From NCBI RefSeq assembly GCF_024502345.1, contig NZ_JALDNN010000001.1: 64,000 nt of DNA; one strand, written 5' to 3'. Of this stretch, positions 2,019-4,184 are shown piece after piece (within the stretch, counting starts at the first letter, position 1; each line of letters begins with the position of its first letter). A model generated the notes under the pieces. The model saw nothing but the letters and a program-made list of their open reading frames with translations. It made no database searches and was not told the DNA's origin. The position numbers and the translations under genes were made by a program. This DNA is from Escherichia coli. Lineage in GTDB: Bacteria > Pseudomonadota > Gammaproteobacteria > Enterobacterales > Enterobacteriaceae.

Positions 2019-2431
2019 TACCCCCTTGTCACTACGTGATTATAGGTACAAAAATGCCCATTTTTGCACATTAACTCAATGAGTTATTGTTGATAACGTG
2101 TATACGGTCACGAAAATTTGGCTTCTTGAGGACTGGGGGGATAGCAGAGGGGAAGAAGTAAAAGAACTATTTGGGTTCTGGATTACAAAGGGATATAAAA
2201 CTCTAAGCGTAAATATAAACAGATTGAAATATCCATAACGAATTATGAAAAACCTTACTGCTTTATATGCATGAAGAGGGACATTTCAATTTCCAGAATC
2301 ACTTAAAAGGCTCATTATATTTTTTACATAACAACCGGTTGTTATGCCTGAACGCGAACTCAATTCCAAATTGAGCTCTGCCACACTAATAACAACCGGA
2401 GAATCTAATATGATAACTGAAACACTATTAA

Positions 2432-3626
2432 GGAAGGTGCGAATAAGCGGGGAAATTCTTCTCGGCTGACTCAGTCATTTCATTTCTTCATGTTTGAGCC
2501 GATTTTTTCTCCCGTAAATGCCTTGAATCAGCCTATTTAGACCGTTTCTTCGCCATTTAAGGCGTTATCCACAGTTTTTAGTGAGATCTCTCCCACTGAC
2601 GTATCATTTGGTCCGCCCGAAACAGGTTGGCCAGCGTGAATAACATCGCCAGTTGGTTATCGTTTTTCAGCAACCCCTTGTATCTGGCTTTCACGAAGCC
2701 GAACTGTCGCTTGATGATGCGAAATGGGTGCTCCACCCTGGCCCGGATGCTGGCTTTCATGTATTCGATGTTGATGGCCGTTTTGTTCTTGCGTGGATGC
2801 TGTTTCAAGGTTCTTACCTTGCCGGGGCGCTCGGCGATCAGCCAGTCCACATCCACCTCGGCCAGCTCCTCGCGCTGTGGCGCCCCTTGGTAGCCGGCAT
2901 CGGCTGAGACAAATTGCTCCTCTCCATGCAGCAGATTACCCAGCTGATTGAGGTCATGCTCGTTGGCCGCGGTGGTGACTAGGCTGTGGGTCAGGCCACT
3001 CTTGGCATCGACACCAATGTGGGCCTTCATGCCAAAGTGCCACTGATTGCCTTTCTTGGTCTGATACATCTCCGGATCGCGTTGCTGCTCTTTGTTCTTG
3101 GTCGAGCTGGGTGCCTCAATGATGGTGGCATCGACCAAGGTGCCTTGAGTCATCATGACGCCTGCTTCGGCCAGCCAGCGATTGATGGTCTTGAACAATT
3201 GGCGGGCCAGTTGATGCTGCTCCAGCAGGTGGCGGAAATTCATGATGGTGGTGCGGTCCGGCAAGGCGCTATCCAGGGATAACCGGGCAAACAGACGCAT
3301 GGAGGCGATTTCGTACAGAGCATCTTCCATCGCGCCATCGCTCAGGTTGTACCAATGCTGCATGCAGTGAATGCGTAGCATGGTTTCCAGCGGATAGGGC
3401 CGTCGGCCATTGCCCGCCTTGGGATAAAACGGCTCGATGACAGCGGTCATATTCTGCCATGGCAGAATCTGCTCCATGCGGGAGAGGAAAATCTCTTTTC
3501 GGGTCTGACGGCGCTTAGTGCTGAATTCACTATCGGCGAAGGTGAGTTGATGGCTCATGATGTCCCTCTGGGATGCGCTCCGGATGAATATGATGATCTC
3601 ATATCAGGAACTTGTTCGCACCTTCC
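2432..3626 (-). mobile_element. IS5 (1195 bp) with 16-bp terminal inverted repeats and 4-bp TTAA target-site duplication
   Basis: GGAAGGTGCGAATAAG at 2432..2447 and its inverse CTTGTTCGCACCTTCC at 3611..3626 (1 mismatch); TTAA at 2428..2431 and 3627..3630. Confidence 0.95.
2578..3558 (-). CDS. insH: IS5 transposase InsH (326 aa)
   Basis: Translation [12 protein letters not shown]...[13 protein letters not shown] matches recalled InsH essentially throughout. Confidence 0.95.
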
Positions 3627-4184
3627 TTAACTGAAGACAAATTAGTTGACATGTTATTTATCACCACCCTAACTGGATTAACTGACAAGTGGTTCTATAA
3701 ATTAATTAAAGATGGTGAATTTCCAAAACCTATTAAGCTAGGGAGAAGTTCTCGCTGGTTACAGAGTGAAGTTGAAAATTGGTTAAGAGAACGAGTTAAA
3801 GCATCGCGAAGCTGAAATGAAATTACGCCCATGCCCCCAATCGGACTGCATGTTTATATCATAAATATCATTATATAACCCACATGTTAACTTCGGAGTA
3901 AAAATAAATGATCACCAGCTAATAAAATCACACCTTGCATGACACGCATTAAAATTAACGCCCCGGATTGGTAATATATACAACAATATACAACGCATCC
4001 AACCATCAACACACTCATCCATTGCAAGTATATAAACAACAATAGTCAATACACTCTGCACATATACACGCCCCCACAAATCAAACTAACAAGCATTCAA
4101 ATCAAAACCATAAATCACCATTTAATTACCTCATCAACCCAAGGTAAGAAACAACCCTAGATACTATACAGACAATAGGAATTT

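Follow-up and report, generated by a model that had tools for sequence, protein, structure and literature searches.

What remains of a small regulatory gene of a genomic island, and of the island's ability to leave the chromosome, when an insertion sequence (IS) enters the gene within its first codons? The question is raised by a 64,000-nucleotide stretch of Escherichia coli DNA (assembly GCF_024502345.1, contig NZ_JALDNN010000001.1; hereafter the window), in which an IS5-type element interrupts an alpA-like gene of an island beside the tRNA gene thrW. For the DNA itself the answer is direct. A stub of seven codons keeps the native promoter, the Shine-Dalgarno sequence and the ATG, and the other 61 codons, cut off by 1.2 kb of IS DNA, lack a promoter, a usable ribosome-binding site and an ATG of their own, as a preliminary description of the locus had supposed when it stated that the gene is parted from its promoter and start codon. 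The arrangement is best explained by an IS5-type element that transposed into a TTAA at codons 7/8 of a gene for a 68-amino acid (aa) AlpA/TorI-type winged-helix protein, and the interrupted allele is very probably null or strongly reduced in function. What this would mean for the island depends on the role of the protein, on expression across the insertion and on the condition of the remaining island genes, which are considered here in turn.

The interrupted gene and its IS5 element

The gene, the element and their junctions comprise the following features, numbered by position in the window:

2398..2401, plus strand: Shine-Dalgarno sequence GGAG of the alpA-like gene, 8 nt before the ATG, now serving the stub only
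2410..2431, plus strand: 5' stub of the alpA-like gene, codons 1-7 (MITETLL) and the first base of codon 8
2428..2431: left copy of the TTAA target-site duplication
2432..3626, minus strand (transposase gene on minus): IS5-type insertion sequence, 1195 bp, mosaic
2432..2608, minus strand: 3' 177 bp of IS5, the 'IB' segment with bend and IHF-site enhancer, facing the alpA promoter and a divergent 304-aa gene
2578..3558, minus strand: ins5A transposase gene, 326 aa, an intact and uninterrupted open reading frame (ORF)
3611..3626, minus strand: inverted repeat that terminates IS5 at its ins5A-promoter end, next to the 3' fragment
3627..3630: right copy of the TTAA target-site duplication
3631..3815, plus strand: 3' fragment of the alpA-like gene, from the rest of codon 8 to the TGA stop at 3813-3815

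The limits first proposed for the interrupted gene, 2410 to 3815, proved exact: the reading frame opens with the ATG at 2410 (ATG ATA ACT GAA ACA CTA TTA, then the A of codon 8) and closes with the TGA, and the element follows the seven codons MITETLL, with the frame resuming at 3631. The stub ORF itself runs on into IS5 and stops after 19 codons at 2469, giving the product MITETLLRKVRISGEILLG before the stop codon. Deletion of the element together with one TTAA restores an ORF of 207 bp for 68 aa (MITETLLTEDKLVDMLFITTLTGLTDKWFYKLIKDGEFPKPIKLGRSSRWLQSEVENWLRERVKASRS), which corrects the earlier estimate of 74 aa. The rejoined protein agrees in every residue (100% identity) with WP_072197167.1, an "AlpA family transcriptional regulator" whose cluster was found on 212 contigs. 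The empty site is also present in existing genomes, since three of the 5426 complete E. coli genomes (PSJ-29, Z226-5, and Z226-6) contain the 1302-bp locus rejoined in silico as one contiguous match of 99.8-99.9% identity, each with a single TTAA. There, the Prokaryotic Genome Annotation Pipeline places a 207-bp coding sequence from the same ATG, assigned to WP_072197167.1 and named either "AlpA family" or "helix-turn-helix transcriptional regulator". These copies of WP_072197167.1, a multispecies Enterobacteriaceae record, share with the window the thrW island, the neighboring genes and the start codon, but unlike the gene in the window they are uninterrupted, and in Z226-5, where the right island end was read, the integrase gene is intact too. 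The interrupted allele was found in none of the 5426 genomes (no place covering at least 80% of positions 2000-4100), and the exact junction strings gave no match in species-representative genomes and Joint Genome Institute metagenome contigs.

The position of the insertion relative to the start codon is of importance for its interpretation. Homologues down to 74% identity keep the length of 68 aa, with M1 and L7 invariant in 13 of them, and the AACCGGAGA block around the Shine-Dalgarno sequence is kept in Salmonella and Yersinia loci, while the Klebsiella locus has AACTGGAAG (TGGAAG) instead. The annotated start, the conserved M1 and the GGAG identify the ATG at 2410 as the correct start, so that the insertion lies in the coding region and not in the leader.

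The identification of the element as IS5 with a TTAA duplication was borne out. A script check of the junctions found terminal inverted repeats that agree at 15 of 16 positions (GGAAGGTGCGAAtAAG / GGAAGGTGCGAAcAAG; also written GGAAGGTGCGAATAAG / GGAAGGTGCGAACAAG), bounding 1195 bp, and a perfect TTAA on both sides at 2428-2431 and 3627-3630. The target preference of IS5 is YTAR, which TTAA fits. The target at glpFK is likewise known, namely CTAA (PMC2753651). The 326-aa transposase matches DDE_Tnp_1 (124 bits), DUF772 (75 bits), and the NCBIfam IS5-family model NF033581 (366 bits; cut-off 140), and 322 of its 326 residues are identical to K-12 InsH1, four residues being different. Over its full length the insert is 96.6-98.8% identical to annotated IS5 copies, the upper value being that of the best IS5-annotated E. 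coli match, so that chance similarity is not an issue.

The nucleotide differences are distributed unevenly along the element. Compared to K-12 IS5A (96.6% identity) there are 41, of which 38 fall within the first 230 bp at the transposase-promoter end, whereas a copy annotated as ISKpn26 (97.7% identity) shows zero differences over these 230 bp. The element is thus a recombinant IS5/ISKpn26 mosaic, in which window positions 3397-3626 (230 bp) are of ISKpn26 type and the remainder is of K-12 IS5 type. It has in common with both K-12 IS5 (IS5A/insH1) and ISKpn26 the length of 1195 bp, the 16-bp inverted ends, the 4-bp duplication of YTAR type and the 326-aa DDE transposase, and differs from both in combining them and in two private substitutions, at IS positions 561 (H165Y in the transposase) and 1056. 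An identical copy was found in none of the 5426 complete E. coli genomes. Isoforms of IS5 are delimited by at least 95% nucleotide identity to the reference element, a value that the copy exceeds, and the name "IS5" is fair at the isoform level.

Family and fold of the 68-aa protein

The rejoined product belongs to the AlpA-type small DNA-binding proteins, in agreement with the preliminary description; a lack of resemblance to AlpA-like proteins, which would have refuted that description, was not observed. It passes the cut-off of the Pfam family PF05930 (Phage_AlpA) with 39.4 bits against 21 (E 5.4e-10, residues 19-59), remains just under that of HTH_17 (26.5 bits; cut-off 27), and in PHROGs matches families labeled "excisionase and transcriptional regulator". 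An exhaustive HMMER search with the 68-aa family collected 3576 cluster representatives at E<=1e-3. Among characterized proteins, BLASTP aligns it with TorI at 35% identity over 62 aa (E 1e-10), beginning at L7, while the match to K-12 AlpA is weak (42% over 31 aa). A profile of 13 close homologues from which TorI was excluded retrieved TorI (E 2.2e-6) and the AlpA-family excisionase of GIsul2 (8c3t; E 5e-4) from PDB. A TorI match from a later profile search against PDB was set aside as circular, because the query alignment then contained TorI and K-12 AlpA.

Structure prediction points in the same direction. An AlphaFold2 model built on 35 diverse sequences reached a predicted local distance difference test (pLDDT) score of 91 and contains a strand (12-13), two helices (15-22 and 26-34), a two-stranded wing (42-44, 47-51), and a C-terminal helix (52-67); residues 1-10 are predicted to be disordered (average 60). 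An earlier model from a shallow alignment of 13 sequences (pLDDT 64, helix-only) was uninformative and was discarded. The top Foldseek matches of the model are the RdfS and GIsul2 excisionases, BldC, Pukovnik Xis, and MerR-family DNA-binding domains. The GIsul2 excisionase (PDB 8c3t, AlpA family) superimposes with template modeling (TM) scores of 0.73/0.86, a root-mean-square deviation of 1.1 A and 31% identity, and RdfS (PDB 8dgl) with a TM score of 0.63; both belong to other mobile elements in other hosts, and with so small a domain the Foldseek E-values reach only about 1e-2. Taken together, we assign to the protein with high confidence an AlpA-family winged-helix, MerR-like excisionase fold, as predicted by the model. 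The complete folded domain, residues ~11-67, is encoded in the 3' fragment (3631..3815).

With regard to function, the protein looks more like an excisionase or recombination directionality factor (RDF) than like K-12 AlpA, as judged from alignments and model. TorI, the RDF of prophage KplE1/CPS-53 (PDB 1z4h), has the same size and winged-helix architecture; its second role as inhibitor of the response regulator TorR is a feature of TorI and is not ascribed to the 68-aa protein. The AlpA proteins of CP4-57 (founder of PF05930) and of Shewanella CP4So belong to the same Pfam family and to the same kind of P4-type island associated with tRNA or tmRNA genes, and are known to promote integrase expression and/or excision (PMC5148205). 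In Shewanella CP4So, deletion of alpA abolishes excision and overproduction of AlpA induces it, and AlpA homologues are needed for the excision of CP4-type elements (PMC5148205). From these relationships we infer that the 68-aa protein would serve as the RDF or excision regulator of its island, and by homology its loss would prevent or reduce island excision. Two observations speak against such a role. The score for the NCBIfam 'excise' model TIGR01764 misses the cut-off (17.1 versus 28.8 bits), and the gene lies far from the integrase gene rather than beside it, being separated from integrase and thrW by ~22 kb in the window and by 17.3 kb in the reference island, which is free of IS; RDF genes are typically, not obligatorily, close. 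In this respect the locus differs from torI, which sits at the prophage end by the attachment site, 17-22 kb being the corresponding distance of the 68-aa gene from integrase and attachment site.

Expression across the insertion

Whether the interrupted gene could still be expressed, or could influence its neighbor, depends on the sequences on either side of the element. Three further features are of relevance:

1104..2018, minus strand: divergent 304-aa gene with a weak C-terminal ribbon-helix-helix (RHH) match (RepB-RCR_reg / Arc-like)
2327..2399, plus strand: leader or operator-like region with three exact copies of ATAACAACCGG and a potential hairpin
3612..3815, plus strand: mechanical hybrid ORF from an in-frame TTG in the IS5 inverted repeat, MFAPS followed by L7..S68, 67 aa

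The native alpA promoter is bounded only to the region upstream of 2410. A consensus scan of 1950-4250 returned no more promoter and terminator sites than in shuffled sequence, and revealed no promoter for the alpA-like gene, none for the 304-aa gene and none reading out of IS5. The suggestion that IS5 might supply an outward promoter to the 3' fragment thus found no backing: the IS5 end that abuts the fragment is the ins5A-promoter end, which fires inward. A hybrid promoter across the right junction, sought by eye, was rejected as well, as the TTGTTC in the inverted repeat is without an acceptable -10 at 16-18 bp. At the opposite side of the element, the IB end is without promoter activity of its own and serves solely as an IHF/bend enhancer for a promoter close by (PMC2753651).

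The loss-of-function reading has its own difficulties, which lie in the 3' part of the gene. The in-frame TTG at 3612 could start a hybrid that keeps L7-S68, and with it all TorI-aligned residues and the structured domain, and transcription from the native alpA promoter would enter IS5 in the sense direction of ins5CB, so that read-through is conceivable. The gene would then still be alive in a leaky manner, with read-through from the alpA promoter or transcription from inside IS5 leading to a functional 67-aa protein from the TTG. The hybrid ORF is in frame, the residues 1-6 that it replaces are variable among homologues and predicted to be disordered, and the alignment with TorI starts only at L7, leaving the whole aligned span in place; moreover, in the ins5CB direction into which the alpA promoter is directed, co-transcription with the target gene can occur (PMC11677980). 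However, the start would be a TTG whose sole Shine-Dalgarno-like sequence, AGGA, is located 2 nt upstream and is too close, and read-through must cross 1.2 kb of IS DNA in which terminator-like sequences have been reported (PMC11677980); in our scan two weak terminator-like sites on the plus strand, at 2464 and 2738, lie in this path. The internal promoters of IS5, Pins5A and Pins5CB, are reported to be largely inactive (PMC11677980). No gene caller has recorded the hybrid product, and look-ups of the exact products found neither the 67-aa hybrid ORF nor a 41-aa stub ORF on record. For a 54-aa product starting from Met15 the sole match, a gene cut short by the end of a 1.1-kb contig, carries no information. 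We therefore consider a leaky, living gene quite unlikely, and a null or strongly reduced allele remains the preferred reading.

A second possibility concerns the other side of the element, where the IB enhancer end is turned toward the divergent 304-aa RHH gene and GTPase genes and could raise expression of this conserved leftward operon. The orientation is that of the IS5 insertions which activate glpFK, flhDC, and fucAO, with the ins5A promoter distal, and activation always occurs with the IB end proximal to the activated promoter (PMC2753651); in addition, the IB segment is only 1 nt off K-12 IB. Against this, the IS end is 413 bp away from the start codon of the 304-aa gene, compared to ~100-170 bp upstream of the transcription start in the known cases, and activation by IS5 depends on helical phasing (PMC2753651). 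The consensus scan found no promoter for the 304-aa gene, and there is no sign of selection for an enhancer-type event. An activating insertion is in our view very improbable. The same holds for a combination of both ideas, in which IS5 would rewire the locus rather than merely kill the gene, the activating orientation and the TTG hybrid together producing a low-level or conditional variant with altered control of the backbone genes; as a proposal from sequence features we give it hardly any weight next to loss of the 61 stranded codons.

In the leader between the two divergent genes, two of the ATAACAACCGG copies make up a perfect 20-bp palindrome (2327-2346), and the third, at 2389-2399, shares the GG of the Shine-Dalgarno sequence; a further copy, with one mismatch, is located at 1824-1834 inside the divergent 304-aa gene. 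The RNA of 2335-2399 is predicted to fold into a hairpin of -25.4 kcal/mol (z-score -4.3). The repeats and the hairpin could be an operator set or a leader that occludes the ribosome-binding site. The hairpin sequence shows no conservation in the Klebsiella, Salmonella, and Yersinia loci, and the leader was for this reason dropped as a candidate structured RNA. As a candidate RDF binding site, ATAACAACCGG, the one repeated motif detected around the gene, has no copy near the integrase gene or thrW, the other island end being situated to the left of window position 1.

Decay of the thrW island

The surroundings of the alpA-like gene show which island it belongs to and in which state this island is found:

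4185..4799, plus strand: YagK/YfjJ-family gene ('inovirus Gp2 family'), product 34% identical to K-12 YfjJ
6065-7121: IS903B with a 9-bp duplication, in a hypothetical gene just downstream of a WYL-domain regulator gene
7488-8849: IS110-like element of 1362 bp, inside the same hypothetical gene
17334-18390: IS903B, truncating the 3' end of a large SIR2-family gene
24360..25266, minus strand: C-terminal part of a P4-type tyrosine integrase (Phage_int_M and Phage_integrase)
25267..26524, plus strand: IS3 of 1258 bp with a TTA target duplication, splitting the integrase gene
26528..26856, minus strand: N-terminal part of the integrase (Arm-DNA-bind_3), adjoining thrW
26981..27056, minus strand: thrW, tRNA-Thr(CGT) gene and island attachment site, followed by proA, proB, and phoE
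53247-54303: third copy of IS903B, outside the island

By the type of its integrase and its location, the island is classified as P4-type (CP4-like), integrated at thrW. The core genes in the window reach no more than 99.5% identity to any E. coli genome of the collection. The gene order of CP4-57 is partly matched, in that the alpA-like gene lies upstream of a YfjJ-family gene; in contrast to CP4-57, there is no yfjI-type gene between these two in the window, and the divergent neighbor is unrelated to YfjH. The idea that the 304-aa gene is a YfjH homologue, which would have meant full synteny with CP4-57, was ruled out, as its product shows no similarity to K-12 YfjH, the protein that holds the same position in CP4-57. 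In islands of E. coli, Klebsiella, Salmonella, and Yersinia alike, the 68-aa gene is without exception accompanied by the divergent gene for the 304/305-aa protein. A YeeP-type GTPase precedes the 305-aa protein in the loci of Salmonella and Yersinia, and in the islands of Klebsiella, Salmonella, and Yersinia the 68-aa gene keeps its position and is followed by a gene of ~200 aa. The cargo at 8702-23956 consists of large ORFs without Pfam match (196, 481, 840, 242, 504, and 857 aa) and a 1103-aa protein with a SIR2_2 domain, plausibly anti-phage defense genes, and is kept at 99.8-100% in the E. coli reference island (Z226-5, and PSJ-29 where read).

BLAST comparison of the window with the Z226-5 island, to which it is 99.8-100% identical, revealed the differences between the two copies. 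In Z226-5 an intact integrase gene of 1197 bp is located beside thrW, and in the window the two integrase parts, once rejoined, form an uninterrupted ORF of 411 codons that is split by the IS3 element. The three IS903B copies (1057 bp each) are identical to one another, each with a perfect 9-bp duplication, and together with the IS110-like element they indicate recent IS activity in this genome. A deletion of 240 bp relative to Z226-5, at about 13648-13654 and with a 7-bp overlap at the junction, has removed part of arsC next to an arsB remnant. Over ~27 kb at least five IS events are counted, that in the alpA-like gene included, and they affect cargo and mobility genes alike. The preliminary description had called the IS5 insertion a second hit, which holds insofar as it is a further hit on the mobility functions besides the IS3-split integrase; in number it is at least the fifth disruptive event. 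Of its supposed consequence, that the island is immobilized or silenced, loss of excision would be expected by homology, excision being in any case already blocked by the disruption of the integrase, while control of island gene expression by the 68-aa protein, and hence silencing, is unsupported. Since the integrase is independently split by IS3, the effect of the alpA-like loss on mobility is redundant.

That two mobility genes, integrase and alpA-like, have been hit might suggest a selected knock-out, in which loss of the excision factor locks useful cargo (the SIR2-type and putative defense genes) into the chromosome, the more so as overproduction of AlpA drives excision in related elements (PMC5148205). 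However, the cargo has been hit as well, by IS903B in the 3' end of the SIR2 gene, by IS903B and the IS110-like element in the hypothetical gene and by the 240-bp deletion in arsC, a pattern that fits indiscriminate IS activity better than selective stabilization. The single hit in the integrase is already sufficient to block excision, and the interrupted allele occurs in no other genome searched. Selection for the knock-out hence appears highly improbable to us. As the cargo genes are also hit and the allele is not seen elsewhere, nothing indicates selection, and the IS5 insertion is probably a neutral event, one of several recent hits (IS5, two IS903B, IS110-like, IS3, and the small deletion). 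Such hits would degrade and fix the island copy in a genome of the E. coli group whose IS elements are active.

A known IS in a known and annotated gene family, on an island under IS-mediated decay, is an ordinary event that is already known, and beyond annotation the insertion is of little importance. The locus is better annotated as an IS5-disrupted pseudogene of the AlpA/excisionase family than as a 67-aa or 54-aa "HTH protein" (helix-turn-helix). With its perfect duplications and an IS-free reference copy that is 99.8-100% identical, it represents a clean and datable case of IS-driven decay that may be of use in studies of IS expansion or island domestication. For this E. coli genome, the hit in the alpA-like gene together with the IS3-split integrase would mean that the thrW island copy is fixed in the chromosome. 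For the family, the intact 68-aa protein is widespread in islands of Enterobacteriaceae and experimentally uncharacterized, and from its comparison with TorI and the excisionase of GIsul2 follows a functional assignment that can be tested.

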